64,000 nt of DNA from Candidatus Levybacteria bacterium RIFCSPHIGHO2_02_FULL_40_18. GTDB lineage: Bacteria; Patescibacteriota; Microgenomatia; Levybacterales; GWA1-39-11. Where the stretch lies: contig MFOC01000007.1 in the NCBI GenBank assembly GCA_001782235.1, positions 315,909 through 379,908 of the forward strand, written 5' to 3'. Shown here in pieces: positions 8,846-59,479 of the stretch (its first letter is position 1; each line of letters starts with the position of its first letter). The position numbers and the translations under genes are program-made. The notes beneath the pieces were generated by a model. That model worked only from the letters and a program-made list of their open reading frames with translations. It was not told the DNA's origin and searched no databases.

Positions 8846-8916
8846 TCGGGATGTGGGGAATTGAACCCCATCCACACGCACCCCATGCGCGCATTCTACC
8901 GTTAAACTACACCCCG
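8846..8916 (-). tRNA. tRNA-Pro (anticodon GGG)
   Basis: Manual fold of the reverse complement: acceptor CGGGGTG/CATCCCG (one G-U pair), D arm GTTT-AACGGTA-GAAT, anticodon stem CGCGC/GCGTG with loop AUGGGGU (U33, anticodon GGG, G37), T arm GGGG-TTCAATT-CCCC, discriminator A. No CCA is encoded. Confidence 0.8.
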
Positions 8917-10361: not shown

Positions 10362-12017
10362 TTACCAGTTTTCCCTGAGGTGATGCATTGCGTATTCGAG
10401 GGAGCCATTGACTTTTTTGCCGCGATTGAAAATATTCTCCGGGTCAAATATTTTTTTGGTTTCTTCAAAAAGTTTGACGATTTTTTCTCCGTACATTTGT
10501 TTAAGATAGGGAGTTCTGATTAATCCGTCGTTATGTTCTCCCGTTGTCGAACCCCTGTATTCTGTAACTATTTTATACACTTTATTTGAAATCTCAGGAA
10601 TTGCGGTTCTAACTCTTGGATTTTTAATATCAACCAATGGAATTATGTGAAAATTGCCGTTTCCAACGTGTCCTGCAACCGTATAAATAAACTCAGGATA
10701 TTGTTTGAGGATGTCCGTAACCCGCGGCAAAACCTCCGAAATATATTCCGGCTTTATTACAAAATCATCTATAAAAGGAGCTGTGTGCTTATCTCGTATT
10801 TTTTTACGAAGCAAATTAAAACTTTCACGGCGGACCAGCCAATATTTTTTTTCCTGCCCTTCCTCGGCAGTTTGGGTGGTAGGGTGAAGCGGCTTTAATT
10901 TCTCGCGTAGCGCTTGAAGTTTGTCTTCAACCTCGCGTCTTTCATTGCTAGTAAAATCAACCTGAAGAACGAGTTTAGGTAGTTTTCTCCCGGTGAATAA
11001 TTCGAAGAATGCCGGCAAAAAAGCAAGTCCTGCCTCAATCATTCCAAAAAGCCCAAGCTGTTTTGCGAATTCGGGGAAATACTTGAGCGCCAATTTTAAT
11101 GTATTGTCATCATATGACTCAAAACTTTCAGGATTAAGTTCGAGAACCGCGTTAATTATTTGCCCAAGATGAGACATGTCATGAAGGTAAATGATTAACA
11201 TTCCACGGTGTTCGTGAACCGGAACAAGTTCAAGATCCCCCTCAAGCATTAGCCCTAATGTTCCTTGTGCGCCAACCCAAAGTTGAGTTAAGTCGAATGC
11301 TTTTTGTTCGCGATCATATACGTTCCAAAGAAAATATCCCGCCGAATTTTTTGACACATCCGGTTTTGCGTTCATAATCTCATCATAGTTATCATTTATT
11401 AGCTTATACATTTTTTGGTAAATTTCTCCTTCAAAATCGTTTTGCGACATTTTTTCTTTTAGTTCTTGTTCGCCAAGTTTTTTAAATTCATAAGTTTTCC
11501 CGTCTGATAGAACCACTTTTACGCGCCTTACATAATTTTCCGTTTTTCCATATTGGAGCGATTTTTCCCCTCCGGAATTATTATTAAATATTCCTCCCAT
11601 TGCACAGATTCCTTTCGATGCCGGATAAGAAGGGAAAATTAAATTGCGTTTTAATGTTTCTGTCTCGAAATCTCGATAAAAAACGCCCGGCTCTGTTGTC
11701 GAAATATTTCCATTTAGAACAGGTGTATGGTTAAAGTATTTACCAAAAGCTACAATAATCGATTCTGAAAGCGCTCCGCCGCTCATGTCAGTCCCCGCGG
11801 CACGCCCTGTGAGTGAAAGGCCGGGATTTTCTTTTTTATGTTTATTAACAAAATTAACTAGAGACTCAACGTCTTCTTGATCGCGAGGAAAAACCACAAC
11901 CTGGGGTTTCACTTCGAACAATGAAGCATCATGACTATATTCTGTAAGTGTCGTTTCGTCAGTTGAAATATCACCTTTTAAAGATTGTTTAAGCTCCTTT
12001 ATAAGATCATTGTTCAT
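10362..12017 (-). CDS. FAD-binding oxidoreductase (FAD-linked oxidase, GlcD/D-lactate dehydrogenase family)
   Basis: N-terminal FAD-binding PCMH-type region (VVFPRDQEDVESLVNFVNK...LTGRAAGTDMSGGAL) and a C-terminal FAD-oxidase domain. Confidence 0.75.
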   Translation of the reverse strand: MNNDLIKELKQSLKGDISTDETTLTEYSHDASLFEVKPQVVVFPRDQEDVESLVNFVNKHKKENPGLSLTGRAAGTDMSGGALSESIIVAFGKYFNHTPVLNGNISTTEPGVFYRDFETETLKRNLIFPSYPASKGICAMGGIFNNNSGGEKSLQYGKTENYVRRVKVVLSDGKTYEFKKLGEQELKEKMSQNDFEGEIYQKMYKLINDNYDEIMNAKPDVSKNSAGYFLWNVYDREQKAFDLTQLWVGAQGTLGLMLEGDLELVPVHEHRGMLIIYLHDMSHLGQIINAVLELNPESFESYDDNTLKLALKYFPEFAKQLGLFGMIEAGLAFLPAFFELFTGRKLPKLVLQVDFTSNERREVEDKLQALREKLKPLHPTTQTAEEGQEKKYWLVRRESFNLLRKKIRDKHTAPFIDDFVIKPEYISEVLPRVTDILKQYPEFIYTVAGHVGNGNFHIIPLVDIKNPRVRTAIPEISNKVYKIVTEYRGSTTGEHNDGLIRTPYLKQMYGEKIVKLFEETKKIFDPENIFNRGKKVNGSLEYAMHHLRENW

Positions 12018-12139
12018 ACAGAAAAAGGAAAGTGGTTATTTGAGATTAGAGAATAGTAATAGAAATTGGAAATTGGAGAATAGCTATTTTTCTATTCCCT
12101 ATTATCTATTTTCCATTACTAATTTTCATTTTCCAATAA

Positions 12140-13129
12140 CTATTTTCTAGATATAGCTTTTTTAACTGCTGCAATTACGGCGTCTTTGTCCATTTTGTAT
12201 TTTTTAATTAATTCGGCAGGTTTTCCCGATTCTCCAAAAGTATTTTGAAGACCAACGAATTCCATCGGGACAGATTTGTTTCGAACAAGAACTTCTGCAA
12301 TTGCACCTCCCAAGCCTCCTGTGATTTGATGGTCTTCTACTGAAACTGCGGTTCCTGCCTTTTGGGTGAGTTCGAGTATTGATTTTTCATCAATTGGTTT
12401 TATTGTTGAAACATTAGCAACAATCACTTCGATTCCTTGGATTGCGAGTTCTTTTGCGGCGAGGAGCGCCTGGTACAAGAGCCAGCCCATGCTAAAGATT
12501 ACTACCTGAGGTTTATTCGAAGTCCAAAAGACTTGAATTCTCCCGGGCTCAAAAGGAGTTTTTTCGGTGGTCATCACAGGGCTTTTGTCTCGAGTAAATC
12601 TTAGATAAACAGGCCCCTTTATTTTTCCTGCTTCAACAGTTGCTTTTTTGGCTTCAATTGCGTCACAGGGTACGAAAATCTTGATATTTGGCCATGCTCG
12701 GACTGACGCAATATCTTCTGTTGCTTGGTGAGTTGCACCATCAGGGCCTGTCATAATCCCCGAATGATGCCCTGCGATTTTAACATTTGAATCGTTATAT
12801 ATAATAGTTGTACGAATTGTTTCCCAATTCTTTCCGGGAGAAAAAGTTGCGTAAGATGAAATAAAGGCGGTTTTTCCTGAAATTCCAAGGCCGGCAGCGA
12901 TAGCGGCCATGTTTTGTTCGGCAACTCCCACTTCAAAAAAGCGGTCTGGGAATTTTTTAGCAAAGTCTTCAGATTTGGTCGACTCTGTTAAATCAGCACA
13001 AAGAACTACAACATTTGGATCTTGTTCGCCCAATTCTACAAGACCCGCGCCGTAGCCGGATCTCGTTGCATCCATCTCAACATCCTTATCAAAAAGTTTA
13101 GGGTTCAGTTTTAAATCAGGATTTAACAT
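12140..13129 (-). CDS. transketolase, C-terminal (pyrimidine-binding) subunit
   Basis: Transketolase Pyr and C-terminal domain motifs (FFEVGVAEQNMAAIAAGL..., GPDGATHQATEDIA). Pairs with the adjacent N-terminal subunit. Confidence 0.85.
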   Translation of the reverse strand: MLNPDLKLNPKLFDKDVEMDATRSGYGAGLVELGEQDPNVVVLCADLTESTKSEDFAKKFPDRFFEVGVAEQNMAAIAAGLGISGKTAFISSYATFSPGKNWETIRTTIIYNDSNVKIAGHHSGIMTGPDGATHQATEDIASVRAWPNIKIFVPCDAIEAKKATVEAGKIKGPVYLRFTRDKSPVMTTEKTPFEPGRIQVFWTSNKPQVVIFSMGWLLYQALLAAKELAIQGIEVIVANVSTIKPIDEKSILELTQKAGTAVSVEDHQITGGLGGAIAEVLVRNKSVPMEFVGLQNTFGESGKPAELIKKYKMDKDAVIAAVKKAISRK

Positions 13130-13133
13130 AATA

Positions 13134-13236
13134 AGAACTCAAAACTTAAAACTCAAAACTCAAATCTACAACTTTAAATCTTAAAACTTTTTAGATTTGA
13201 GATGTAGTTTTGACATTTGACATTTGAGATTTGACA
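13134..13236. repeat. family-B imperfect palindromic heptamer repeat (aaactca/aaactta ... agatttga/catttga) filling the gap between the two transketolase cistrons
   Basis: The left arm (aactcaaaacttaaaactcaaaactcaaatctacaactt) and right arm (agatttgagatgtagttttgacatttgacatttgagatttgac) are roughly reverse complements. Related fragments occur inside tsaE (54603-54650) and the SpoU gene (24781-24817). Confidence 0.75.
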
Positions 13237-14105: not shown

Positions 14106-15440
14106 CTATTTTCTTAGTACTATTATTAAATCAGATACATTGGAAGGAAGTCTACCCGTAGTAAGATTATCCCGAGTTTTCTTGAAGAACTCAAAACTAT
14201 TGTTGGTTTCCAAATATTTTAGGGGTTCAATCTCTAATTTTTTTGCTCTCTCGATAGTTTTATAGTCGCCAATTGCGCCTGCATGTTCGGTATTGTCCCA
14301 TCCGTCTGAAGCGAACGAACAAATTGTAATATCGCGGCCGACATGCTCAAGTGCTCCTAAAACTAGTTCTTGGTTTCGCCCGCCGCGACCCTCCCTCTGG
14401 GCCAGAGACTCTCTGGGCCGGAGACTCTTTTTTGCTACGTGAACGGTTGTTTCTCCCCCGCAAAGCAAGATCGAATTAAGATGAGTCTCAGAAATCAATT
14501 TTTTGCCTGCATCTCGTGCCTCTGATTCAAATCGATCGGAGAAAATCTCTGCATGGTAGCCTAGGTCTTTGGCCCCTTTTTGCATTGCAGAAAGTGCCGT
14601 ATCGTTACTTAAAACGATTATATTACGAACATTCTCAAAATATTTTTTATCATGAGGATTTTCAATAAAAGCGTCACGCGTCAAATTTAATTCTTGTTCG
14701 AGGTTATATTTTTTAATGATCCCAATTGCATCTTCAATTGTTGTTGGATCGTAGGCTGTTGGGCCTGAGGCAATGGTTGATAGATCATTTCCGGGAACAT
14801 CTGAATAAATCAAAGCTGCCACTTTTGCGGGGTACAAAATTTGAGCTAATCCTCCGCCTTTAACGTCCGATAAGTGCTTTCTGACTATATTCATTTCGGT
14901 AATATTTGCTCCGGATTTCAAAAGCGCTTTGCCGACCTCTATTTTTTGTTCGAGTGATATTGTATGCGGATGAACAAACATGGCAGACCCGCCGCCGCAA
15001 ATAACAACCAAAACAAGATCTTTTTCGGAAAGATTCGAAAGCCTTTCGAGAACCTTTTGGGTGAATTTAAAATTCGTTTCGGACGGAAGAGGATGAGTTC
15101 CCTTAGTAAATTCAAGTTTTTCAAGGCGAGGCCTTGCATGAGCTTGCCTTTCAGGGATGCTAGTATCGATCACGTAACCCTCCGTTAATTTGTCGGAAAT
15201 TAGATTTTCGAGTATCTTAGCATTCTCGGCCGAACCTTTTCCAAAGCCCAAGATAAAGACTCGTTCGAAATCATCCAGATCGAATTCCTGATCGCCGATC
15301 GTCAAAATATTCCCGTGTCTGTGAACGCTTGTTCTGAAAACCTCCTCCGGCTGAATCGAAGCAAGTGCAGCCTCAACAAGCTCTAAAATAATTTTTCTTT
15401 CAGGCGTCTTTGCAATCTCGGAGAAATTCTTAATAAACAT
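14106..15440 (-). CDS. glycerate 2-kinase (MOFRL family)
   Basis: MOFRL-family motifs (VFILGFGKGSAENAK; LVLVVICGGGSAMF; LLCGGETTVHV). Confidence 0.75.
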   Translation of the reverse strand: MFIKNFSEIAKTPERKIILELVEAALASIQPEEVFRTSVHRHGNILTIGDQEFDLDDFERVFILGFGKGSAENAKILENLISDKLTEGYVIDTSIPERQAHARPRLEKLEFTKGTHPLPSETNFKFTQKVLERLSNLSEKDLVLVVICGGGSAMFVHPHTISLEQKIEVGKALLKSGANITEMNIVRKHLSDVKGGGLAQILYPAKVAALIYSDVPGNDLSTIASGPTAYDPTTIEDAIGIIKKYNLEQELNLTRDAFIENPHDKKYFENVRNIIVLSNDTALSAMQKGAKDLGYHAEIFSDRFESEARDAGKKLISETHLNSILLCGGETTVHVAKKSLRPRESLAQREGRGGRNQELVLGALEHVGRDITICSFASDGWDNTEHAGAIGDYKTIERAKKLEIEPLKYLETNNSFEFFKKTRDNLTTGRLPSNVSDLIIVLRK

Positions 15441-24555: not shown

Positions 24556-25086
24556 TTATTTATTTCTCTCGAGGGATTTGTAAAGGACTATTGCCAGACT
24601 GACTATTACATTGAGGCTGACATTTACGCCAAACAGGGGGAGTTCGACAATTTGATCTGAGATTTCAAGAGTCTCTTTTGAGACGCCGCGGGTCTCATTT
24701 CCAACTACTAGCGCGATAGGGAATTCGTAATCTGCCTCCGTATATGGAATACTTTTCGAAGATTGCTCAATCGCAATCACTTTTAGATTTAAGATGTAAG
24801 ATTTAAGATGTAAGATGGCGGATTTGGTGTCAACGACATGCTCCCAGTCGACCCATTCGGTTGTGTTAATCGAAGCCTTCTTGATTCGGGAATTTGGCGG
24901 GGTTTCAGTGTATCCGCAAAGCAAAAGTTTTTTTGCAGCAACTGCATCAGCCAATCGAAAAATTGCACCGACATTATATGTATCCAAGACGTTATCAAGA
25001 ACTATATAAATATCGTTTTTTTTGATTTTACCTTTTTCTTTTTCAGAGGATGAGCTCCGCCTCAATTTATATGCGTTTAACTTCAT
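24556..25086 (-). CDS. SpoU/TrmH-family RNA 2'-O-methyltransferase
   Basis: SPOUT motifs (IYIVLDNVLDTYNVGAIFRLADA ... ALVVGNETRGVS ... LNVIVSLAIVLY). Confidence 0.75.
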   Translation of the reverse strand: MKLNAYKLRRSSSSEKEKGKIKKNDIYIVLDNVLDTYNVGAIFRLADAVAAKKLLLCGYTETPPNSRIKKASINTTEWVDWEHVVDTKSAILHLKSYILNLKVIAIEQSSKSIPYTEADYEFPIALVVGNETRGVSKETLEISDQIVELPLFGVNVSLNVIVSLAIVLYKSLERNK

Positions 25087-27152
25087 TGTTCACTTGGGGC
25101 AGGGGTAGATGGCACAGCTTGTTTCACAAGTTGGGCTTTAGTCCACACCGCAAAATCACACTTTGGATAGTTGCCGCATCCGTAAAATGTTCGGCCGCGG
25201 CGCGTCCTTTTCAGTACCATCTTACCTTGGTCGCGAGGGCATAAGTAACCCGATTCCTCAGCAAAAGATTCACGGAATTTGCAGTTCGGAAAATTAGAGC
25301 ATGCCTTAAACTTACCGAATCTACCGATTCTAATAACAACGTCACCGCCGTCGAGCGGACATTTTTCGCCTGTTTTTTCAAGCTCAATCTTAATTTTTTT
25401 CTCCTCTTGCGCATCTTTTAAGTGCTTCTCGAATGGTCCGTAAAATTCTTTTATAACCGGAACCCAGTCCGTTTTACCGTCTGCTACCTCATCAAGTTTG
25501 TCTTCCATAGACGCTGTAAAAGGAATATCATCTATTGTTGAGAAGTTTTTAACCAAAAAATCATTCACCAGAGTCCCTATCTCAGTTGGCTTAAAGCGAT
25601 TTTCTTCTTTTTCAACATAAAATCTTGCTTCTATTGTTGAAATAATCGGCGCATAAGTTGAGGGACGTCCGATTCCGTGTTCCTCAAGCGCACTAATCAA
25701 AGATGCTTCACTATATCTTGGAGGCGGATTGGTATTGTGAGAGGTGATATTAATTTTGCGAAGATCCAATTTTTCATCTTTTTGAAGTTCCGGTATCAAC
25801 TGCTCTTCATCCTCGTAAAACCAGATTTTAAGAAATCCATCGAATTTTATCACGCGACCATTTGCTACAAAATCATAAGCTTTGCTATCTTTCACCTGGG
25901 CCTCGACTCGGGTAGAAAGGAATACTGCATCTGCCATTTGAGTTGATAGAGCTCTTTTATATATAAGACTGTAAAGCTTTGCAAAATCTCTTCCGAGTTT
26001 TGCAGTGACCGTCTCTTCATCTTCGAATAAATTAGTGGGGCGTATTGCTTCGTGTGCTTCTTGAGCAAGCTTTGATTTCGTATGGTAAATTCGGGGTGTT
26101 TGAGGTAGGTATTTTCCCCCAAAATTTTTCTCAATATAATTTCTTGCAGCGGATATAAATTCATTCGAAAGATTGTAGGAATCGGTTCTGTGATAGCTTA
26201 TAAAGCCTTCTTCATATAATCTCTGTGCTAAGCCCATGGTTCGTTTACTTGTGTAACCGAAACGGCGAGAAGCCTCAATCTGAAGAAGCGATGTGGTAAA
26301 GGGAGGATAAGGCGCACGTTTTGTTTCTTTTTGAATTACGTCTGTAACAACAAAATCTTTATTTGCAAGATCGTTCTGGATTGATTCGGCATCCGTGTTC
26401 GACAATCGGGTTTCGGCATATTTGTATTCCCCATCATAAAGAGGTAGGGTAGTTGTTTTTTCAATCGGCTCATCGTTTATCTTAACCAACTCAAAAGTTA
26501 TCGGCTGGTTTTCTCCCCTCCAGGCCGGAGGCCCTCCAGGGCCGGAGGCCTGTTTATTAACGACGACAAAAACTCTATAAAATTCTGTGCTTTTGAATTT
26601 TTCAATTTCGCGCTCACGCTCAACAATTAATCGAAGCGCTATAGACTGAACGCGACCGGCTGACAATCCCTTTTTGATTTTCATCCAAAGAATTGGCGAA
26701 AGCTTGTATCCTACAACTCGATCTAAAACACGTCTTCCGGTTTGCGCGGCAACAAGATTCATGTCTATCTCCTTTGGATGTTCCAAGGCTTCGTTAATTG
26801 CGGTAGGCGTGATTTCATGGAAGACAATTCGATCGAACTTAGTTTTCTTATTTTCCTCCGATAAAACCGTTTTGAGATGATATGAGATTGCTTCTCCTTC
26901 GCGGTCCGGATCTGTTGCCAAAATTATTCGATCGACATCTTTTACTTCCTCAATTAAACCCTCAACAATTTTCCTCTTATCTTTTGGGATTACATACGAG
27001 GGTGTGAAGTCATGATCAATATCCACCCCCAAAGCCCCCTTTGGCAAATCTCGAATATGCCCCATCGATGCCTCTATTTTGTACTTTTCTCCAAGAAACC
27101 TCGATAATGTTTTCGCCTTAGTGGGAGACTCGACAAGTATTAAAGATTTCAT
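25083..27152 (-). CDS. topA: DNA topoisomerase I
   Basis: Toprim N-terminus (LILVESPTKAKTLSRFLG...GHIRDLP), the Topo IA core, and C-terminal Zn-ribbon repeats (CPLDGG..., CPRDQGKM..., CGNYPKC). Confidence 0.9.
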   Translation of the reverse strand: MKSLILVESPTKAKTLSRFLGEKYKIEASMGHIRDLPKGALGVDIDHDFTPSYVIPKDKRKIVEGLIEEVKDVDRIILATDPDREGEAISYHLKTVLSEENKKTKFDRIVFHEITPTAINEALEHPKEIDMNLVAAQTGRRVLDRVVGYKLSPILWMKIKKGLSAGRVQSIALRLIVEREREIEKFKSTEFYRVFVVVNKQASGPGGPPAWRGENQPITFELVKINDEPIEKTTTLPLYDGEYKYAETRLSNTDAESIQNDLANKDFVVTDVIQKETKRAPYPPFTTSLLQIEASRRFGYTSKRTMGLAQRLYEEGFISYHRTDSYNLSNEFISAARNYIEKNFGGKYLPQTPRIYHTKSKLAQEAHEAIRPTNLFEDEETVTAKLGRDFAKLYSLIYKRALSTQMADAVFLSTRVEAQVKDSKAYDFVANGRVIKFDGFLKIWFYEDEEQLIPELQKDEKLDLRKINITSHNTNPPPRYSEASLISALEEHGIGRPSTYAPIISTIEARFYVEKEENRFKPTEIGTLVNDFLVKNFSTIDDIPFTASMEDKLDEVADGKTDWVPVIKEFYGPFEKHLKDAQEEKKIKIELEKTGEKCPLDGGDVVIRIGRFGKFKACSNFPNCKFRESFAEESGYLCPRDQGKMVLKRTRRGRTFYGCGNYPKCDFAVWTKAQLVKQAVPSTPAPSEQ

Positions 27153-27282
27153 ATTTTTCAGTTCTCTGTTCTCAGTTTTCGGTTTTCGGATCCCGGTTTA
27201 CCGGTCGTCAGTTTATCAGTTAAATTAGTATAACAAAGAGAAGTCATGTATTGTAAAGGGCAGAAACCAGTTTTGCAAGGGG

Positions 27283-28377
27283 TCAGTCGAAGTAGAGGTC
27301 GGGAAGGGCGGTGATTTTGTGCCAGTCGACTGGTTTGTAATTTAGGAGGGCATAGGCGCCGATCATGGCGGCATTGTCTGTAGCGTAAGTTTTTGCAGGA
27401 GCGGAAATCTTAGCCGTTGGCAGTTGGCTTTTGGCTGTTAGCTCGAACTGTTGGCGGAGGGTTTGGTTTGCGGATACGCCGCCACCAAGAAGAATATTGT
27501 TAATTTTGTACAATTTTGCTGCTCGAATAGTTTTTTTGATCAACACAGCAAAAATTGCCTCTTGTAAAGCATGGCAAACCTCATTAATTAACCTTTCGGT
27601 TAAATGTTTTTTAACAATAAATCTTGATATTTCAGTCTTTAGTCCTGAAAACGAAAAATCAAAATCCTCGGTATTAATTAATGGACTATGAAATTTGGCT
27701 GTTGGTTGTTGGTTGTTAGCTCGGCGCTCGATTTCGGGACCGGCCGGATAAGATAGGCCAAGAATTCGGCCGACTTTGTCGAGTGCTTCTCCTGCCGCGT
27801 CGTCTCGAGTCCCGCCAAGCCATTTGAATTTAGATGCTGATTCGAACAACAACAAATCAGTATGGCCTCCGGAGACAATAAGGCCGATGAAGGGGAACAT
27901 TTTTCCAGTATTCAGTATTGAGTATTCAGTATTGAGTATAAAATTAGCAAAGAGGTGTGCGAGGAGATGATGAACGGGAATTATTGGCTTGTCGAATGCA
28001 AAAGATAGGGTTTTTGCTGTTTCGACTCCAACGAGAAGTGAACCTATTAAACCGGGGCCACTGGTGACGGCAATGGCGTCGATAGACTTTTTAAGTATTT
28101 CATTTGCTCGTTCGAACTGTTTCGAATTGTTCAATTGTTTGATTGCTTCATTGTTGATCCCTTCGGAATTAAGAAGTGCGCGGACAATAACCGGAATTAT
28201 TGCTTTGATTTGTTCGCGGGCTGCGAATTCCGGAATTATTCCGCCAGTTTTGGCATGGAGACTTGAAGAGGTGGCGGTAACATTTGATAAAACCCTTACG
28301 AATTGTTCGTTGTCTTTTTTTTCAACTACAGCCGCCCCCGTTTCATCACAGCTAGTCTCAAGACTTAGTATTATCAT
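27283..28377 (-). CDS. tsaD: tRNA N6-adenosine threonylcarbamoyltransferase
   Basis: MIILSLETSCDETGAAVV, HHLLAH, SGGHT and DFSFSGLKT, all Kae1/TsaD hallmarks. The start is taken at MIILSL; the track ORF extends further upstream. Confidence 0.88.
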   Translation of the reverse strand: MIILSLETSCDETGAAVVEKKDNEQFVRVLSNVTATSSSLHAKTGGIIPEFAAREQIKAIIPVIVRALLNSEGINNEAIKQLNNSKQFERANEILKKSIDAIAVTSGPGLIGSLLVGVETAKTLSFAFDKPIIPVHHLLAHLFANFILNTEYSILNTGKMFPFIGLIVSGGHTDLLLFESASKFKWLGGTRDDAAGEALDKVGRILGLSYPAGPEIERRANNQQPTAKFHSPLINTEDFDFSFSGLKTEISRFIVKKHLTERLINEVCHALQEAIFAVLIKKTIRAAKLYKINNILLGGGVSANQTLRQQFELTAKSQLPTAKISAPAKTYATDNAAMIGAYALLNYKPVDWHKITALPDLYFD

Positions 28378-28610
28378 AAATTGTTTCGCCTGCCCCGTAT
28401 AAGCGTCCTCGCGACGCGAGGACGAAGACCTCGGGAGTAAGTAAGCTTTGTGCGGGGTCACAAGAGGTCTCAATAGCCAAAACTCTCATTGAAATAAAGA
28501 AATTGGTTGTAAGAAATTGGAAAATGGTTATGGAAACTAGATATTGGAAATTGGTTTGTTTTAAAAAACTATTTTCTATTTTCCTATAACTATTTTCTAT
28601 CTTCTCTTTG

Positions 28611-29081
28611 CTATATTCCCTTGAAAGTAATCTTGATGCCTTTTTTAATTCCCAATTTCTTAACCTGTCCGGCGTTTAATTCCAAAACTCGATTTACGGG
28701 TACGTCAGGAATGTAAATAGTTAAATTTGGAGTCTGGGCGCCTGGCGAGGCATTTTCGACGATATAAACGACCATATCGTCATCAATAAATATAATATCT
28801 ATGGGAAACTTCATGTCTCTCATCCAAAAGCCGTATGTCCCCTTTTTTTCAAAAATAAATAACATTCCCTGGTCTTCCGGTAAATTATTCCTTCCCGAGA
28901 GCCCCTTCGTTCTATCTTTGTCAGATTTTGCAAGAATCAGGCTTATCTTTTTGTTATTGACTTGCGCCTCGGCGCCCCCTTTAAACGGAATTAAAGATGG
29001 CAGATTTCCTCCGGCTTTAAAAACTGCAAGGAGAATAACTGCAATTATAAGTGCCACATAAACTATAATTAATTTCTTCAT
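28611..29081 (-). CDS. DUF192 domain protein
   Basis: Signal/TM N-terminus plus the DUF192 core (GMLFIF...GFWMRDMKFPIDIIFID). Confidence 0.65.
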   Translation of the reverse strand: MKKLIIVYVALIIAVILLAVFKAGGNLPSLIPFKGGAEAQVNNKKISLILAKSDKDRTKGLSGRNNLPEDQGMLFIFEKKGTYGFWMRDMKFPIDIIFIDDDMVVYIVENASPGAQTPNLTIYIPDVPVNRVLELNAGQVKKLGIKKGIKITFKGI

Positions 29082-29551: not shown

Positions 29552-29584
29552 ATTCTTAAAGTCCTAAATTCTAATATCTAAATC

Positions 29585-29735
29585 ATAGTTAATAAGAAAT
29601 TGGTTGTTGGAAATAAGAAAATGGTAATAGAAATTAGATATTAGAAATTGGTTTTTATTTATTTTTATTTAACTATTGTCTATTTTCTACTTTCCATTAC
29701 TAATTTCCATTTTCCTATAACTATTTTCTAATATA
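29585..29735. repeat. family-A palindromic heptamer-periodic intergenic repeat (~150 bp), copy A3; near-identical inverted copy at 46495-46650, shorter variants at 12030-12150 and 28487-28612
   Basis: The reverse complement of 46502-46648 aligns almost base for base with 29592-29733. Shared blocks are tagaaattgg, aaaatggtaatagaaa, ccattactaatttccattttcc and ataactattttcta. Confidence 0.85.
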
Positions 29736-37919: not shown

Positions 37920-39182
37920 ATGCTTGATATTAAGTTTATTCGGGAGAATCCGGATAAAGTTCGTGAAGGGGCAAAAAATAAAAATATCAATGTTCCGATT
38001 GATGAAATACTTCGTCTAGACCAAGAACATCGCGAATTGTCTCGGATACTCCAAGAATTGTATACCCAAAGAAACCGCGCCGCAAAAGAAAGAGATATTG
38101 AAGGCGGTCGGGAGGTTAAAGCAGAGGTTGATTCTAGCGAAGATAAACTTGGGAAAATCAAAGAAAGATTGGATGAACTTCTTTATGCCGTACCAAATTT
38201 GCCGGCCCTTGATGTAAAAATAGGAAAAGACGAATCGGAAAATGAGATTATTCGAAAAGTTGGTTCGCCGAAAAAGTTTTCATTCAAAGTTCGTGACCAT
38301 GTTGAGTTGGGAGAATTGCTTGAAATTATCGACCTTGAACGAGCAGCAAAAGTTTCCGGTACCCGATTCGCATATTTAAAAAATGAAGGAGTTCTTCTTG
38401 AATTCGCACTCGCCCAATTTGCCTTAGACAGCTTAATAAAGGAAGGATTTATTCCGATAATTCCGCCCGTGCTTATTAAGACGGAAACAATGAAAAAGGT
38501 CGGTTATATGGAACACGGTGGGGATGAGGACATGTTTCATATCGAAAAAGATGGTTTGACCCTCGTGGGAACTGCCGAGCATTCAATCGTCGCAATGCAT
38601 CAAGACGAAACATTTTTGGAACGTGATCTACCTGTAAGATATGTCGGGTTTTCATCTGCCTTCAGGCGTGAAGCGGGATCTTACGGCAAAGACACTCGGG
38701 GAATTCTTCGCGTCCACCAATTTGATAAAGTAGAAATGGTTTCATATACGACTCCTGAAAAGAGCGATAGTGAACAAGACTATCTTTTGAATATTGAAGA
38801 GAAGTTTTTTCAGGCGCTCAAGATCCCTTATCAAGTTGTCAAAATGTGTACAGCCGATTTAGGATTTGTTCAGGCCAAAAAATATGATATTGAAGCATGG
38901 ATTCCGTCTCAAGAGAAATATCGAGAGATGACCTCCGCATCGCATCTTACAGATTTTCAAGCAAGACGGTTGAATATTAAATTCCTGCCTGCCGGCAGGC
39001 AAGGCCAAAAAGGTTTGGAAAAAGAATTCATACACACTCTCAACGCCACAGGTTTTGCAATTGGCCGAACTTTAATTGCAATTCTTGAAAATTATCAAGA
39101 AAAGGATGGTTCAGTTGTTGTACCAGAAATTTTGCGAAATTACGTAAATATAGATAAGATTTCACCAAAGAAATTAAAATAG
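37920..39182 (+). CDS. serS: serine--tRNA ligase
   Basis: N-terminal coiled-coil arm and the class II core (FRREAGSYGKDTRGILRVHQFDKVE). Confidence 0.9.
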   Translation: MLDIKFIRENPDKVREGAKNKNINVPIDEILRLDQEHRELSRILQELYTQRNRAAKERDIEGGREVKAEVDSSEDKLGKIKERLDELLYAVPNLPALDVKIGKDESENEIIRKVGSPKKFSFKVRDHVELGELLEIIDLERAAKVSGTRFAYLKNEGVLLEFALAQFALDSLIKEGFIPIIPPVLIKTETMKKVGYMEHGGDEDMFHIEKDGLTLVGTAEHSIVAMHQDETFLERDLPVRYVGFSSAFRREAGSYGKDTRGILRVHQFDKVEMVSYTTPEKSDSEQDYLLNIEEKFFQALKIPYQVVKMCTADLGFVQAKKYDIEAWIPSQEKYREMTSASHLTDFQARRLNIKFLPAGRQGQKGLEKEFIHTLNATGFAIGRTLIAILENYQEKDGSVVVPEILRNYVNIDKISPKKLK

Positions 39183-39579
39183 TTAAAATGGTTGGAATAG
39201 TTGAATGGTTTTGATAGCCATGTAACCATGTAGCTATTTTAGCCATTGGCTCTTTTGATTTTTGTTGATTTATCAGTCTAAACCTTAATTTTCGAAGCAG
39301 GCAATTTTCTTGACAAAATTTTTTATTTTTTTCACGATTAAATTGGAGCATAATAAGTTCTAGTTTGAGATACTGTTTGGTCCGCCAGACCTTACTTTAG
39401 GGCTTTTCAGTATTATTCATACACGCCCTAAAGAGCGGTCTTCGGCGGACGTAAGAAACTGTAAACTCACTTTACAGTTCGTTAACAGTTTCTAACGGAG
39501 GTGATATTTTCATGGCAAGAAAAAAAGCAAAGAGAAGGAAGAGGAGATAAAATAAATTCCAAAGAATGATCATCTTTTG

Positions 39580-44804: not shown

Positions 44805-45677
44805 ATGGATTCTTCAGGACACTATAGAAAGCTTGCGGATAAGTGGATCAAGCGGCACCGTGATTTTCAGGAACAGTTGTGGGCTTCGCACGGAGATGCA
44901 ATAAATGACTTTATAAACAGCACAAAAAATTTTGCCATTGGGTCAATCTCGGGGCTAATGCTTTTATCAAGTCCAGCCGCAAATTTAATTGGGCCAGTCA
45001 GTGCGCTGACGGTCGAAGAACAAAAATTACCCGTAGATAAAAGCGCTTTTTTGGCCTCAGATGTTCTTTCTGTTTTGCCAAAGGAGGTTCGTCCATTAAC
45101 GCCGGAAGAAGAAAATTCCATTTCTCAGATTTTTACTCGGGATTTTGGGTTTAAAGTCGCACATGAACTTTCAGGTATTCGATTGAATCGATCATATGGT
45201 TATATAGGGGCCGAGCAGCATCTGGCGCGATATCCCGGTGACACAATGACTACTCATTTCGAGGATAGTTCGGATAGTTCAAAATTCTATTCGTCCGGAA
45301 TGGCACCGGGACTGGGTGCCTGGGGTTATTTTGCAAATTCTCGTTCGGAATTAACCCAAAAAGACATAGATCGTGAGAAATATTATATTGCCGTTCAAAC
45401 ATTTCTTGCTCCGGGATTCGCGGAGCACACGGGAAAATACATTACTTTTTTTAAATTTCGGAAAATGCTTGTAGTGAATCCTCATACCGGGCGTGCTATA
45501 GTAGTGGTGATAGGTGATGCCGGACCCGCTGAATGGACTGGAAAGAGTTTGGGCGGGTCGCCCGAGGTTATGAAGTATCTTGAGCGTGTTGACGGTAGCG
45601 GGAGAGGGCCGGTTCTGTATTTTTTTATAGACGATCCAGAAGACAAGGTTCCACTGGGACCAATCGAAATTAAATAG
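44805..45677 (+). CDS. hypothetical protein with possible RlpA-like double-psi beta-barrel domain
   Basis: The C-terminal segment LVVNPHTGRAIVVVIGDAGPAEWTGKSLGGSPEVMKYL resembles the DPBB pattern V.V.N..NGR.V.V.V.DRGP. Confidence 0.35.
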   Translation: MDSSGHYRKLADKWIKRHRDFQEQLWASHGDAINDFINSTKNFAIGSISGLMLLSSPAANLIGPVSALTVEEQKLPVDKSAFLASDVLSVLPKEVRPLTPEEENSISQIFTRDFGFKVAHELSGIRLNRSYGYIGAEQHLARYPGDTMTTHFEDSSDSSKFYSSGMAPGLGAWGYFANSRSELTQKDIDREKYYIAVQTFLAPGFAEHTGKYITFFKFRKMLVVNPHTGRAIVVVIGDAGPAEWTGKSLGGSPEVMKYLERVDGSGRGPVLYFFIDDPEDKVPLGPIEIK

Positions 45678-45740
45678 TTAAAATGGTTAAAATAGTTAGA
45701 ATAGTTCAAAACCATGTAGCCATTTAACTATTTAGCTATT
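45672..45740. repeat. family-C repeat (aaatagttaaaatggtt ... aaccatgtagccat ... aactatttagctatt), copy C2; other copies 39178-39250, 50536-50625, 52268-52312, 59403-59478
   Basis: Five copies, each starting at or overlapping the stop codon of a + strand gene. Some contain an in-frame ATGGCTAAATGG. Confidence 0.8.
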
Positions 45741-46464: not shown

Positions 46465-46684
46465 ATTCAAATTCCTAAATTCTAAAAAATATATCAATAT
46501 ATTATTAGAAAATAGTTACAGGAAAATGGAAATTAGTAATAGAAAGTAGAAAATAGAAAGTAGTTAAATAAAAATAAATAAAAACCAATTTCTAATATCT
46601 AATTTCTATTACCATTTTCTTATTTCCAACAACCAATTTCTTATTGACAGAATTTTGATATTCGAATTTAGGATTTAAAATAGT

Positions 46685-50540: not shown

Positions 50541-50629
50541 CTAAATAGTTAGAATAGCTAAATGGCTACATGGTTTTATTTTTATGTTCAGCTATTTAAC
50601 CATTCAACTATTTTAGCTATTTTTATTCG

Positions 50630-52271: not shown

Positions 52272-52278
52272 ATACTCA

Positions 52279-53544
52279 ATGGCTAAATGGTTACATGGTT
52301 ACATAGTTAGATCATCTTTCGCAATTCTCGTTCTGTTTCTTTCTTTATTCTTAGGCAGGATTGTTTTTGCACAAACGGTAACGCCATCCCCAACGCTTTC
52401 ACCTACGCCAACTCCGGAATCGAATTCTTCGTCAAATGTCTGTACTGGCGTTCAGGAATGTGCCGATCAAAAATTAGATTGCTCAAAGTGTATAGAATAT
52501 TTAACAAACAAGAAGAATGAGGCTTCGGGCAAAGCAAAAACTCTCTCGTCGGAAATCGCCGTAACAAATAACCAAATTAAATTAACTGAGGCAAGAATAA
52601 GAGCAACCGAACAGAAAATAAAAGAGCTTCAGAAAGACATAGGCATTGCAAAAGGAAAGATAGAGGAGCTTGAAAGCACGATAGATAGGGCAACAAGACT
52701 CTTGATTGAAAGAATTGCCGCCGTATATCAGGTGGGAAGAATTGAGCCTTGGCAAATATTCTTGACCGCAAGGAATATTGATGATGTTTTTTCAAGACTT
52801 AAGTATCTTCGTTTAGTTCAAATTTATGATAAGAGACAAGTTTATGCAGCGGAACAGGCAAAAACTGACTATGCAAACCAAAAAGAAATTTTTGAGGACA
52901 AAGAAGGCGAGGCAAAAAGCCTAAGTGCAAAACTCGAAGGTTATAATCAACAACTTGAAACAGAAAAAGCCGGAAAGCAAGAATTGCTGAATATAACCCG
53001 GAATGATGAGGCAAGATATCAAAGATTCTTAGCCCAAGCAAGAGCTGAGCGAGCAATAATCCAGGGTGGGGGGACGGAGGTATTTTTGCGGAATGTTAAT
53101 GTAGGCGATTCGGTCGGAACAATAATTTCAGGTAGATCCGGTTGTTCCACGGGTACACATGTTCACTTCAGTGTTTATCAAGGAACTTCTCCGCGCGATC
53201 CAAGCGATTTCCTCTCATCAAAGGGGGTTTCCTACTCGTATCCCGAGTCGCAGTATGGATATTATGGCACTGTAAATCCGCATGGAAGTTATCCATGGCC
53301 TCTTGACGACCCAATTCAAGTTAATCAGGGATATGGTTCGCATGGGTTTGCTCAGCAGTTTTATCCAAGTGGGTTTCATGACGGGATTGATATGGAGGGC
53401 GGAAGTCTTAATGTTAAGGCAGTCCGCGCTGGCAAGCTTTATGAAGGAAGTTACGGCGGCTGTAGTTATGGTCCCCTGACTTACGCAAAAGTTGAGCACG
53501 ATGATGGATTGATAACTTGGTATCTTCACATAACTCCCCACTAG
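52279..53544 (+). CDS. M23-family peptidoglycan metalloendopeptidase with N-terminal coiled coil (EnvC-like)
   Basis: Signal/TM segment, ~200 aa of coiled coil, then an M23 (LytM) domain (GCSTGTHVHFSVYQG ... HDGIDMEGG ... YLHIT). Sits directly after ftsEX. Confidence 0.8.
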   Translation: MAKWLHGYIVRSSFAILVLFLSLFLGRIVFAQTVTPSPTLSPTPTPESNSSSNVCTGVQECADQKLDCSKCIEYLTNKKNEASGKAKTLSSEIAVTNNQIKLTEARIRATEQKIKELQKDIGIAKGKIEELESTIDRATRLLIERIAAVYQVGRIEPWQIFLTARNIDDVFSRLKYLRLVQIYDKRQVYAAEQAKTDYANQKEIFEDKEGEAKSLSAKLEGYNQQLETEKAGKQELLNITRNDEARYQRFLAQARAERAIIQGGGTEVFLRNVNVGDSVGTIISGRSGCSTGTHVHFSVYQGTSPRDPSDFLSSKGVSYSYPESQYGYYGTVNPHGSYPWPLDDPIQVNQGYGSHGFAQQFYPSGFHDGIDMEGGSLNVKAVRAGKLYEGSYGGCSYGPLTYAKVEHDDGLITWYLHITPH

Positions 53545-53592
53545 AAATAGTATCTAGATATTAGATACTAGATATTAGATAATAGGTGCGAA

Positions 53593-54411
53593 ATGATGAG
53601 ACGATTCTTGTTGGTTTTATTCTTGATTTCGGTGACCTTTTTTATTTTACCCAGCGAAATATATGCTTCTATTACAATTAACGAATTCAGTTCTAGTACG
53701 TCTAGCGATGACTGGGTAGAAATATATTTTGAGAGCGAAGACACTGCATTATATCAGCTAGTAGATGCTTCGGATAATACAAAAAACTTATCAGATGGAA
53801 GTTGTTCTGGTAATTTTTGTACAGTTGATTGGTCGAACAGATTAAATAATAATGGCGACACAATAAAACTTCGGCTGATATCCTCTAGTTCAGTCGTGGA
53901 TGAAATAACTTACGGGAATGATTCACTATCGGCTCCATCTGATGGGCAAACGGTCGGTCGACTTCCGGATGGAACAGGTTCGTTTGTGATGTTGTCTTCT
54001 TCATCGAAAGGGAGTTCGAATAATTCTTCGAATGCTGTAGTCTCGCCGACGGCGACGCCAACTAATACACCCACGCCTACGGATTCGCCGGATCCAACAA
54101 ACACGCCTACACCTACAAAAACTCCCACCCCAAAAAAGACGCCAACCCCGACTAAAAGACCAACCCCAACCCCTACAAAACTACAAGAGAAAGAGGCGGG
54201 GACGGATGATTTATTTGTTGCTGGCGAGACCAAAATTGCGCTTGATAAGTCTCCTACGCCTTCTGGAGTCACTGAGATTTTGGGAGAAAGCACATCAAAA
54301 CAGCCCCTTATTTTTATCGGCCTTGGGGCAATAGTTCTTGCAGTGTGCGGAATTCTTGCATATTTCCAGTTTGGAAACAAAATCCTTGTATGGAAGAAAC
54401 AGAATTTATAA
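53593..54411 (+). CDS. secreted lamin-tail-domain (LTD) protein with Pro/Thr-rich linker and C-terminal membrane anchor
   Basis: Signal peptide; LTD motif (SITINEFSSSTSSDDWVEIYFESED ... NNGDTIKLR); a (TPTP)n linker; a C-terminal hydrophobic helix. Confidence 0.7.
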   Translation: MMRRFLLVLFLISVTFFILPSEIYASITINEFSSSTSSDDWVEIYFESEDTALYQLVDASDNTKNLSDGSCSGNFCTVDWSNRLNNNGDTIKLRLISSSSVVDEITYGNDSLSAPSDGQTVGRLPDGTGSFVMLSSSSKGSSNNSSNAVVSPTATPTNTPTPTDSPDPTNTPTPTKTPTPKKTPTPTKRPTPTPTKLQEKEAGTDDLFVAGETKIALDKSPTPSGVTEILGESTSKQPLIFIGLGAIVLAVCGILAYFQFGNKILVWKKQNL

Positions 54412-54878
54412 CTCGCTCGGCGAGAGAAACAGAAGATTTAGGTTCAAAACTTGCTCATAACTTTCGAATCGGTAATATTATTGTGTTGACGGGCGAACTA
54501 GGGGCAGGAAAAACTACCTTTGTTCAGGGGGTAGGCAAAGCATTTAATATTAAAAGCCGAATCATTTCGCCTACATTTATTTTGGTTAGAAGACACAAAG
54601 TGAAACTCAAAACTCAAAACTCAAAACTCAAAACTACAACTCCCCTCGATGAAACTCGGGGCAAGCAAAACTTAAAAACTCTCTATCATATTGATTTATA
54701 TCGGCTGGAGGATTCGGAGGAAATTAAAAATTTGGGGCTCGAGGAGATTTTTGAAGATCCGAACGCCATTTTTTTCGTCGAGTGGGGAGAAAAACACGAG
54801 GAGTTGAAAGCCTCTTGGGAAATAAACTTCGAGATCCTTGAGAAAGACAAGAGACGTATAACGCTCAAACATGAATAA
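54390..54878 (+). CDS. tsaE: tRNA threonylcarbamoyladenosine biosynthesis ATPase TsaE
   Basis: P-loop LTGELGAGKTTFVQG and the conserved SPTF..V..H...LYHIDLYRL. Carries a ~20-aa insertion encoded by a heptamer tandem repeat. Confidence 0.85.
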   Translation: MEETEFITRSARETEDLGSKLAHNFRIGNIIVLTGELGAGKTTFVQGVGKAFNIKSRIISPTFILVRRHKVKLKTQNSKLKTTTPLDETRGKQNLKTLYHIDLYRLEDSEEIKNLGLEEIFEDPNAIFFVEWGEKHEELKASWEINFEILEKDKRRITLKHE

Positions 54879-55449
54879 AAATTTATTAAAAGCGCTCGAA
54901 ACTGTTAAGAAAGGAGGAATCATTATTTTTCCAACGGATACGGCATTCGGGATTGGATGTCGAGTTGATGATGAAAAAACCGTTGAACGATTATTTCAAA
55001 TTCGAAAACGACCAAAAGAAAAGGCTGTTCCTGTTCTTGCAAGTTCAATCAATATGGTTGAAGACTATGTCGAATATATCAAACCTGATGTTCGAAAGCT
55101 TATGGGGAAATATTGGCCGGGCGCTTTAACTTTGGTCTTGCCAGCGAAAGTAGAAAGAGTGTCGAATTTGATTCGCGGTGGTGGGAAAACAATAGGGATT
55201 CGGATTCCGGATCATGATTCAATTCTTAGGGTTATTAGGGCGGTTGGGGTGCCGATTTTGGGGCCATCCGCGAACCTTGCGGGAGAGAAAACGCCTTTTA
55301 AAATGTCTGATTTAGATCCGAATTTGGTACGATTGGTTGATTTTGTTTTGCACGGCCGTTGTAAAATTAAGAAGCCCTCCACAGTTCTTGACGTTTCGAA
55401 AAAGCCATGGAAGGTGATTCGGCAGGGAGCCGTCCGTCTAACAAAGTAA
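54871..55449 (+). CDS. tsaC: L-threonylcarbamoyladenylate synthase (YrdC/Sua5 family)
   Basis: YrdC motifs (GGIIIFPTDTAFGIGC ... AVPVLASS ... WPGALTLVLPA ... IGIRIPDH). Confidence 0.85.
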   Translation: MNKNLLKALETVKKGGIIIFPTDTAFGIGCRVDDEKTVERLFQIRKRPKEKAVPVLASSINMVEDYVEYIKPDVRKLMGKYWPGALTLVLPAKVERVSNLIRGGGKTIGIRIPDHDSILRVIRAVGVPILGPSANLAGEKTPFKMSDLDPNLVRLVDFVLHGRCKIKKPSTVLDVSKKPWKVIRQGAVRLTK

Positions 55450-55475
55450 CAAATTGACCAATTAACAAATTAACC

Positions 55476-58394: not shown

Positions 58395-59408
58395 ATGAGA
58401 TTGTTAGTCACCGGTGGAGCTGGATTTATCGGTTCGAATTTTATTCTTTATTGGTTAAAAAACCATCCAGAAGATGAAATTGTAAACTTTGATAAGCTAA
58501 CTTATGCAGGAAACCTTGAGAACTTAAAAAGTATCGAGGGCACTCCGAATTATAAGTTTGTAAAAGGTGATATTGCAAATGCGGATGATGTCGCGGCAGT
58601 AATTCTCGGGATTGATATTGTTGTTCATTTTGCCGCAGAAAGTCATGTTGACCGTTCAATTCATGATTCTGCCCCATTCATCATGACAAACGTCGCCGGG
58701 ACTCAAATTCTCCTTGACGCTGCGCTTAAAAATAATGTTAAAAGGTTCCACCATGTCAGTACGGATGAGGTTTTTGGATCACTAGAATTGAACGATCCGA
58801 ACAAATTTAATGAACGAACAAATTATAACCCCAGAAGTCCTTATTCGGCAAGTAAAGCCGGTTCGGATCATTTGGTTAGTGCTTATTATTATACATACAA
58901 TCTTCCGATTACAATTACAAACTGCTCAAACAATTTCGGTCCGTATCAGTTCCCTGAAAAAATTATTCCTCTTGCAATCACTAATCTTCTTGAAGGAAAA
59001 AAAGTTCCAATATACGGAGATGGTTTGTATGTTCGCGATTGGCTTTATGTGGAGGATCATGTAAAGGCAATCGAAGCGGTTCTTGACAAAGGAAAAATCG
59101 GCGAAACTTATCTTATAGGTGGCATGACAGAAGATATTCCTAACATTGAAGTTGCCAAAAAAATTGTTCGCATTTTAGGAAAATCGGAAGGTGATATTGA
59201 ATTTGTTAAGGATCGTCCCGGACATGACAGGCGTTATGCTATTGATTGGTCAAAAATTAAAAACGAGTTAGGCTGGAAGCCACTCCATGATTTTGACACG
59301 TGGCTTAAGAAAACAGTAGAGTGGTATAAAGAGAATGAAGATTGGTGGAGAGAGGTAAAGAGCGGTGAATATCAGAAGTACTATGAAAAACAGTACAATA
59401 ATAAATAG
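58395..59408 (+). CDS. rfbB: dTDP-glucose 4,6-dehydratase
   Basis: LVTGGAGFIGSNF Rossmann motif, YSASKAGSDHL catalytic YxxxK and HVSTDEVFG. Confidence 0.88.
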   Translation: MRLLVTGGAGFIGSNFILYWLKNHPEDEIVNFDKLTYAGNLENLKSIEGTPNYKFVKGDIANADDVAAVILGIDIVVHFAAESHVDRSIHDSAPFIMTNVAGTQILLDAALKNNVKRFHHVSTDEVFGSLELNDPNKFNERTNYNPRSPYSASKAGSDHLVSAYYYTYNLPITITNCSNNFGPYQFPEKIIPLAITNLLEGKKVPIYGDGLYVRDWLYVEDHVKAIEAVLDKGKIGETYLIGGMTEDIPNIEVAKKIVRILGKSEGDIEFVKDRPGHDRRYAIDWSKIKNELGWKPLHDFDTWLKKTVEWYKENEDWWREVKSGEYQKYYEKQYNNK

Positions 59409-59479
59409 CTATATAGCTTAAATGGTTAAAATAGTTTTAAAACTATTTAGCTATTCAACTATTTAGCTATTTTTATATT

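Follow-up and report, generated by a model that had tools for sequence, protein, structure and literature searches.

Among the long microsatellites of bacteria, heptanucleotide repeats are the commonest class, yet no function has been established for them and little is known of their evolutionary dynamics. According to the secondary accounts in PMC4679880 and PMC4692102, Mrazek, Guo and Shah (2007) found heptamers to be the most abundant class of long simple sequence repeats (LSSRs) in many prokaryotes and polymerase slippage was proposed for them; PMC4692102 also relates the three tandem heptanucleotides described in Calothrix PCC 7601 as short tandemly repeated repetitive (STRR) sequences (Mazel et al. 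1990). The TAACTGA repeats of Beggiatoaceae, cyanobacteria and Bacteroidetes (MacGregor 2015, PMC4679880) come in sets of 2–6, mostly a few nucleotides before start codons, and those inside open reading frames (ORFs) are found only in the stop-free orientation, where they encode 7-residue-periodic peptides of the type LSVISYQ. Here we consider a 64,000-nucleotide stretch, referred to as the window, of contig MFOC01000007.1 from the uncultured groundwater bacterium Candidatus Levybacteria bacterium RIFCSPHIGHO2_02_FULL_40_18, in which heptamer tracts occupy tsaD, the gene for tRNA N6-adenosine threonylcarbamoyltransferase, as well as tsaE and a SpoU-family methylase gene. These tracts are probably heptanucleotide simple sequence repeats (SSRs) of the STRR or LSSR kind that have become fixed, in frame, in permissive and disordered loops.

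The window holds 15 period-7 tracts compared with 0.4 expected, an excess of about 40-fold as measured by a simple periodicity score against Markov-shuffled sequence. Enrichment extends to period 8 (8 tracts vs 0.7 expected), to period 9 (6 vs 0.5), and to 14 and 21, which are harmonics of 7; periods 3–6 and 10–13 are at chance. At least 12 heptamer unit classes are present, genic and intergenic ones together. With three or more tandem 7-nt copies, over-representation in which period 7 dominates, and several dispersed unit families, the repeats belong to the STRR/LSSR class. Most tracts of period 7 to 9 lie between genes, as the arms of long, imperfect hairpins. By a strict criterion of at least 20 of 28 period-7 matches within 35 nt, tracts inside ORFs are confined, among the roughly 60 genes of the window, to tsaD (three), tsaE (one) and the SpoU-family methylase gene (one); miaA and tsaC, which lie in the same window, have none.

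As for the STRR sequences of heterocystous cyanobacteria, in the form in which the secondary accounts present them, the repeats described here consist of tandem 7-nt units, fall into several families per genome, are dispersed, and have no known function. In those accounts, however, STRR arrays are mostly intergenic and often long, whereas the tracts of interest here comprise about five units, lie in frame in conserved enzymes of a host from the Candidate Phyla Radiation (CPR), and occupy sites that persist across species. The unit ATACTGA is TAACTGA with two bases swapped, and like the TAACTGA repeats the intergenic arrays of the window sit just upstream of start codons (PMC4679880). The TAACTGA family differs in having one dominant unit and in-ORF cases at protein termini or in hypothetical proteins, where we find many units, internal loops of universal enzymes, and persistence among orthologues. 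The dominance of period 7 among LSSRs is shared with the Mrazek survey as cited; there, units that are multiples of three predominate inside genes, in contrast to the 7-nt units found in genes here, which are held to 21-nt steps. The repeat class itself is already known. What is new is the CPR host, the location in internal loops of universal enzymes, the persistence of sites with turnover of units, the conservation of synonymous sites in one tract, and an apparent preference for tsaD and tsaE.

The gene and its tracts are as follows.

27283..28377, minus strand: tsaD, encoding 364 aa, start MIILSLETS, Pfam PF00814 (E=3.6e-75).
27906..27939, minus strand: tract 1, units ATACTCA ATACTGA ATACTCA ATACTGA ATACT(GG), encoding ILNTEYSILNT(G).
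27695..27723, minus strand: tract 2, CGAGCTAA CAACCAA CAACCAA CAGCCAA, encoding RANNQQPTAK; found by Tandem Repeats Finder (TRF) at 27695–27717 as TTGGTTG x3.3, 93% matches.
27417..27445, minus strand: tract 3, CGAGCTAA CAGCCAA AAGCCAA CTGCCAA, encoding (F)ELTAKSQLPT; TRF 27416–27443, 4.0 copies.

The assignment of the host protein to the TsaD family is given by the PF00814 domain, the two histidines of the HxxxH motif (H137 and H141), which are invariant in the alignment, and the ASKHA fold. An AlphaFold2 model (mean pLDDT, the predicted local distance difference test score, 83.7) matches E. coli TsaD (4ydu) and the entry 4wq5 in Foldseek with a template modelling (TM) score of 0.82, and Aquifex TsaD with about 0.8. 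The catalytic motifs are intact. The sequence is 100% identical to OGH16518.1 (Candidatus Levybacteria) and to further NCBI entries, and more than 40 contigs carry it, in assemblies of NCBI, JGI, ENA and Logan.

Tract 1 lies in the loop (loop 1) between the metal-binding HxxxH helix and the FPF strand of TsaD. An earlier note on this DNA, made from the letters alone, had described it as a heptamer tandem repeat, and TRF bears this out on the minus strand, with 4.9 copies of period 7 at 27906–27939 (88% matches) and 2.4 copies of period 14 at 27907–27939 (100% matches). The chance expectation of the pattern ATACTSAATACTSAATACT in the window is 0.04, and no other ATACTSA tract exists in the 64 kb on either strand. 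The note had also placed a net gain of seven residues (21 nt, three heptamers) between HxxxH and FPF relative to E. coli, which agrees with the gap of 7 residues in the phmmer alignment with E. coli TsaD (4ydu_A); the gap relative to Aquifex TsaD (8iey_A) is 8. Relatives that lack the repeat were checked for loops of identical length, and the insertion stands, since loop 1 is 6–7 aa shorter in L089 and P0013 (ANFISNKSSILFPF), P0018, P0022, P0023, P0050 and P0058. In a set of 120 homologues loop 1 varies in both sequence and length, with length modes at 7 and 14 residues; one homologue (P0024) reads IRNTKYLILNT at this position at the protein level. Residues 151–157, encoded by tract 1, are modelled as coil with pLDDT below 50, and in the model the segment behaves as expected of an exposed, flexible loop.

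Tracts 2 and 3 are related to each other. They form a 29-nt direct repeat (27417–27445 and 27695–27723) in which 25 of 29 positions are identical, read in different frames, and the residues AK just downstream of tract 3 complete the ELTAKSQLPTAK motif. The second heptamer tract that had been noticed in tsaD is thus real (27695–27717 by TRF), but two further proposals about it do not hold. It is not a repeat-derived insert, since there is no net length change relative to E. coli at this site in the genome of the window, and it does not match a family A intergenic element to any extent beyond an exact 11-mer, TTGGTTGTTGG, at 29600 and 46626 (minus), which is weak evidence; its true partner is tract 3 within tsaD itself. 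A 15-mer, TTGGCTGTTAGCTCG, does recur as had been stated, although 3 nt from the coordinates then given (27434–27448), the exact copy being at 27431–27445 and a one-mismatch copy at 27709–27723. In homologues, the tract-2 site spans 19 aa in P0004, P0017 and L092, all three with the same AGCCAAC-type unit, compared with 12 aa in some relatives.

Ten syntenic Levybacteria loci together with the window provide 11 tsaD genes for comparison, and period 7 is the sole period enriched in them by the strict criterion. Strong period-7 segments occur at just three sites, namely loop 1 (10 of the 11 genes), the tract-3 site (6 of 11) and the tract-2 site (2 of 11). Loop 1 is built of heptamers in ten of the genes, and the units differ.

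ATACTSA x5: the window, L083, L085, L087 and L091.
ATAC.. ATACTTA, interrupted by a 30-nt GC-rich hairpin: L092.
AAATTTC x4: L093.
CAATTTC/CAGTTTC: L094.
ACTCAAA x4: L096.
Degenerate ATACCAA form: L095.

At the tract-3 site the protein has the same length in 10 of the 11 genes, and the units are AGCCAAC, TGGAAAT, AAATTTG, TAAAAAT, TAATAAA and CCACCTG. In tract 1 of L087, units 1 and 3 carry the identical A-to-G change. The periodicity is thus kept in place while the sequence is not, a pattern that marks a tandem array evolving in concert. Tract 1 appears to be ancestral because loops of the ILNT type are spread over the whole clade in a rough neighbour-joining (NJ) tree, and it appears to have been lost or replaced several times. 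In the larger set of 120 TsaD homologues, 7-residue-periodic tracts are present in 38 proteins; other tested periods reach at most 10, with the exception of period 5 (31 proteins).

The two remaining in-ORF tracts, with the features next to them, are listed here.

54390..54878, plus strand: tsaE, encoding 162 aa, of which about 23 are inserted between SPTFILV and LYHIDLYRL.
54603..54635, plus strand: (AAACTCA)x4.7 in tsaE (TRF, 100% matches), encoding KLKTQNSKLKT.
54642..54661, plus strand: GC-rich hairpin CCCCTCGATGAAACTCGGGG adjoining the tsaE heptamer tract; the 27-nt stretch containing it folds at −7.8 kcal/mol.
24781..24817, minus strand: ATCTTAC/ATCTTAA x5 in the SpoU-family methylase gene (24556–25086), encoding ILHLKSYILNLK.

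For tsaE, the repeat-derived insert that had been claimed is confirmed: the protein carries about 23 extra residues compared with T. maritima TsaE (6n9a_E), and the phmmer match splits in two with the insert between the halves. Many TsaE homologues have 7-residue-periodic peptides at this single insert site, with insert lengths that cluster at 10–12, 17–19, 24–27 and 31–32 aa. Positions 54604–54641 of tsaE match the intergenic segment 13136–13173 at 95% over 38 nt, including a non-periodic tail, CTACAACT. A claim of the same kind for the SpoU gene survives only in part. The tract is there, but it leaves the length of the protein unchanged, with all orthologues at 176–177 aa, so it is not an insert. 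The units at the SpoU site are ATCTTAM, AAACTCA and GATCTAA across orthologues.

The repeats originate at the DNA level: the reading frames of tracts 2 and 3 differ, intergenic DNA is filled with the same type of repeat, and the tsaE tract has its 38-nt match in an intergenic element. A sequence of events can be envisaged in which slipped-strand or template-switch duplication of a 7-nt unit would give an array of about five units (about 35 nt). Since 7 is coprime to 3, the frame is preserved only when units are gained or lost in threes (21 nt, 7 aa), which accounts for the step of seven residues. The unit is translated in all its phases, and stop triplets must therefore be absent from those that are read. 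This requirement explains both the orientation of tract 1 and the identity of its third unit: ATACTCA supplies TCA (Ser) where ATACTGA would place the stop codon TGA. Once established, arrays would persist in place without decay, and their units would be homogenised against each other through misaligned templating or cycles of 21-nt gain and loss. The encoded loop peptide would be a tolerated passenger and no functional module, as suggested by the disorder of the loop, the intact catalytic motifs, and the existence of relatives without a tract. No variation in copy number is seen within the species-level cluster, and the loops differ by about 7 aa (three units) between lineages; single-unit steps are invisible in the ORF.

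Some observations do not fit easily with this account, most of all the conservation of tract 1 at the nucleotide level. In five lineages with an ILNT-type tract, whose tsaD genes are 68–77% identical in DNA and near saturation at synonymous sites outside the tract, the same codon is used in all five at 7 of 8 comparable tract codons, compared with 24% of amino-acid-invariant columns elsewhere (binomial P=3e-4; amino-acid-specific P=7e-4). The conserved codons include rare ones, with CTG, CTC and TAC making up 6%, 9% and 27% of their families. Tract 1 is the least variable 33-nt segment of tsaD (4 variable sites vs a mean of 15.5), with catalytic segments close to it (5–6), and the island of identity starts and stops at the tract borders. 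Of the substitutions within it, four are non-synonymous and one is synonymous, so constraint at the protein level alone does not account for the conservation. A neutral passenger should decay, and tract 1 is kept almost base for base in five lineages. Furthermore, slippage by 7 or 14 nt would frameshift the essential tsaD gene, and homogenisation at constant length has to be attributed to a mechanism that we can only infer. Tolerance of the loops does not obviously account for tsaD and tsaE as the preferred hosts, and recurrence of units at unrelated sites above chance could mean copying of tracts and not slippage in situ. All of these points weigh against the reading of the tracts as SSRs that grew in place and are merely tolerated.

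Copying is the basis of the alternative that survives best. Here the tracts would not have grown in situ, but would be pasted copies of small dispersed heptamer elements, spread by ectopic repair, template switching or a novel kind of transposition, which we regard as possible although unlikely. Near-identical copies with common non-periodic ends do exist in two cases: tracts 2 and 3, whose reading frames differ, have the head CGAGCTAA in common, and the tsaE tract shares its tail with the segment at 13136. No such copies exist for tract 1, which has no second copy in the 64-kb window, and a search with the peptide (ILNTEYS)x6 among 5.8 billion clusters identified no other host protein either (785 word-sharing candidates, with one unrelated 36-aa match of period 8). 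At independent sites, the unit classes AAACTCA, AAATTGG and AAATTTC recur 4, 3 and 2 times, giving about 11 coincident pairs vs 0.4–1.4 expected. This recurrence can, however, be independent. In 26 unrelated IMG/VR contigs (L097–L122), some from giant-virus bins and some of high GC content, there are homogeneous arrays of 4–12 units of the types (ATACTCA)n, (ATACTGA)n and (AAACTCA)n. They show no link to tsaD, and by our own estimate about 2e-4 matches to the ATACTSA pattern would be expected by chance; identical heptamer units can thus be seen to expand independently in genomes of very different kinds. Also at odds with insertion are the units at the tract-3 and SpoU sites, which change at constant length, where insertion predicts otherwise. 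Terminal inverted repeats, target-site duplications or an associated transposase were not noticed at the tract borders, although no systematic search was made for them.

The GC-rich hairpins found in or beside tracts, as in loop 1 of L092 and in tsaE, would also be in keeping with small inserting elements. Hairpin-forming mini-inserts of this type (20–54 nt, −8 to −32 kcal/mol) occur in frame in TsaD and TsaE loops, at L092:2461–2494, L083:4661–4697, L085:4533–4586 and 54642–54661 of the window, and in the TsaE homologues P0144, P0145, P0153 (PPPRGLWPGG), P0154 and P0155; some are nested within heptamer tracts or adjoin them. Matching of 11-mers found no common sequence family among them. The small dispersed repeats (SDRs) of Nostoc punctiforme, studied by Elhai et al. 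in 2008, are reportedly very small structured elements that insert in genes and in heptameric repeat contexts. The 30-nt hairpin of L092 and the tsaE hairpin resemble SDRs, but no sequence family common to the mini-inserts described here was found.

Alternatively, the tracts might function at the level of DNA or RNA, as protein-binding sites or as runs rich in ANN codons by which translation of the machinery for N6-threonylcarbamoyladenosine (t6A) would respond to t6A status itself, and be selected as such, preferentially in tsaD and tsaE. We consider this doubtful, but it draws on the codon conservation of tract 1 (P=3e-4 to 7e-4), on the periodicity held at fixed sites while the units change, on the 7-residue-periodic peptides at one site in TsaE homologues, and on the fact that all five in-ORF tracts of the window are in tsaD, tsaE and the SpoU gene. 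Distant genomes add to the apparent host preference. A scan of metagenome contigs with alignment provided at least 80 tsaD loci (L003–L082) at 37–54% identity, distant and mostly CPR, as an independent set for an enrichment test. Among the matches listed (79 loci), tsaD has 25 period-7 tracts in 86 kb vs 9 in 322 kb of other long ORFs, a density about 10-fold above the neighbouring ORFs per kb (P=8e-11), although such P values treat tracts as independent and would be inflated if many tracts stem from common descent of a few ancient arrays. Among the same matches, the excess is unchanged if loci that lack tracts altogether are set aside. Of the nine tracts outside tsaD, three are in the valyl-tRNA synthetase (ValRS) gene downstream of it (L014, L024 and L028). 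An excess of period 7 as such is also seen across these 80 unrelated loci. The tracts of the distant loci occupy corresponding permissive positions, near aa 20 and aa 70, in loop 1, ahead of LPRPM and at the tract-3 site. Among the matches listed there are up to five tracts per tsaD gene (five in L012), and examples are L012:3052–4085, L015:190–1126, L024:3063–3412 and L028:3046–3969.

A role in translation has been proposed for the TAACTGA repeats (PMC4679880), and the intergenic arrays a few nucleotides 5′ of start codons in the window are similar in this respect. ANN codons make up 48% of tract codons vs 32% genome-wide (P=0.008). This excess is modest, however, and arises because the units are A-rich, and an ANN run in tsaD would result in positive and not homeostatic feedback. 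Because the units differ by site and lineage, a single sequence-specific binder is excluded. Tract 1 is absent from the close relatives L089, P0018, P0022 and P0023, and miaA and tsaC in the window are tract-free. Nor is there any sign of a known regulatory element: in a scan of 27100–28700, promoter and terminator counts were at chance level with none within tract 1, the RNA of the tract-1 region is predicted to be unstructured (z=0.13), and an Rfam scan of the whole window gave one tRNA only (8846–8916) and nothing at the tracts. A more specific version, in which long-lived arrays at fixed tsaD and tsaE sites in a broad group of CPR bacteria would be selected at the nucleotide level as cis elements and would not be neutral passengers, is if anything slightly less credible. 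In this version selection would preserve periodicity and synonymous sites during the concerted turnover of units, and the arrays might be translation-rate or t6A sensors, or protein-binding platforms similar to the arrays before start codons. On balance, the fixation of heptanucleotide SSRs in permissive loops remains the reading that we prefer.

Phase variation, in which slippage in tract 1 would toggle tsaD, is very improbable and was rejected because of the lack of length variants: gain or loss of a single 7-nt unit would frameshift the ORF, and the contingency loci of the hmw1A type in Haemophilus influenzae, where heptanucleotide repeats drive switching, share with tract 1 a gene-associated short tandem repeat of a unit not divisible by 3 (PMC8262952), but here no length variants of TsaD are present in the 90% protein cluster (three members on more than 40 contigs from several assemblies), there are merely about five imperfect units, one copy number is shared by five species, and the host is a housekeeping enzyme and not a surface, virulence or restriction-modification gene. 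Tract 1 is instead old, since it is common to many Levybacteria lineages, and fixed. An artefact of assembly or gene calling, to which tandem repeats are prone in the case of assembly, can be dismissed with near certainty, given that the 34-nt tract is shorter than typical reads and k-mers, that independent assemblies agree on an identical protein (NCBI, JGI, ENA and Logan), and that orthologues from independent samples hold the tract in frame. Two other candidates were discarded. Selection of a protein-level heptad as the origin is incompatible with the different frames of tracts 2 and 3 and with the same repeats in intergenic DNA, and mimicry of the 7-nt anticodon loop of t6A substrates was dropped as the units lack the U36-A37-A38 pattern.

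Repeats in universal, alignable genes make it possible to measure age, turnover and constraint against a protein scaffold. The present case shows how protein indels are forced into steps of 7 aa when the length of the unit is coprime to 3, and it shows arrays that persist at the same loops, concerted replacement of units, and conservation of synonymous sites in at least one tract. Should complete genomes bear out both the bias towards tsaD and tsaE and the constraint on nucleotides, CPR bacteria would seem to have a layer of cis-regulation or genome maintenance that has gone unrecognised. Otherwise the value for annotation remains, in that low-complexity loops with a period of 7 residues in CPR proteins derive from microsatellites, and gene calls extended 5′ across adjacent repeat elements are artefactual.

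The intergenic elements of the window fall into three families.

12015–12149, 28486–28620 (minus strand; upstream of tsaD), 29583–29733 and 46495–46648: family A hairpin elements with 7-nt units, intergenic.
39164–39254, 45659–45740, 50543–50623, 52278–52309 and 59398–59479: family B elements, intergenic.
13136–13234: family C, intergenic; one arm of (AACTCAA)n, then the inverted complement as (TTTGAGA/TTTGACA)n.

Each of these elements consists of a purine-rich arm followed by its complement and folds into a long imperfect hairpin (z=−4.8 and z=−3.5), and they are oriented with transcription. Two family A segments, 29588–29733 and 46503–46648, are 97% complementary over 146 nt. The minus-strand gene 12140–13129 starts 7 nt downstream of the family C element, and many arrays stop 7–10 nt short of a start codon, with examples at 53555–53585 (ORF 53593), 55439–55474 (ORF 55476) and 59443–59472 (ORF 59480).

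A few features of tsaD are outside the three tracts. In the N-terminal variable segment (EGINNEAIKQLNNSKQ), which is an indel hot spot in homologues with varied insertions of up to about 40 aa (P0011), there is a tract of period 8.

28125..28153, minus strand: period-8 tract, AATTGTTC-like.

Immediately 5′ of the gene, at 28385–28470 on the minus strand, a GC-rich segment in an otherwise AT-rich genome has two to three strong hairpins (−28.9 kcal/mol for 86 nt) and no Rfam match. Some gene callers run the tsaD start out to 28461 or 28473 through this element, and the P0001 call of 392 aa, compared with 364 aa in NCBI, contains 28 spurious residues from read-through of the segment. At around 27500–27545, corresponding to residues VLIKKTIRAAKLYKI, codons are almost invariant in nearly all ten orthologues, including the diverged ones, and this region is among the least variable 33-nt segments of tsaD, with about 6 variable sites.

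Mosaic sequences were also encountered. The N-terminus of P0002 corresponds to one Levybacteria lineage and its C-terminus to the lineage of the window, P0126 shows the reverse arrangement, and in the SpoU gene of L094 (L094:5829–6362) the first 28 codons match L083 and the middle part matches the window. These point to either recombination among co-occurring lineages or chimeric assemblies. The sole locus from the scan of genome contigs, L001/L086 (CAYIRD010000052.1), is titled ‘uncultured Gammaproteobacteria bacterium’, but its gene order (SBP, VanW, CTP-transferase, DUF192, tsaD, topA) is that of Levybacteria and its TsaD is 74–78% identical to that of the window, so the record is probably mis-binned or mislabelled. 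Finally, two GC-rich tandem duplications of 16–17 nt are present in the window, CTCTGGGCCAGAGACT x2.1 at 14395–14428 and CCCTCCAGGGCCGGAGG x2.1 at 26516–26550 in topA; the latter is read in topoisomerase I as SGPGGPPAWRGE and may represent another class of in-frame repeat insert.

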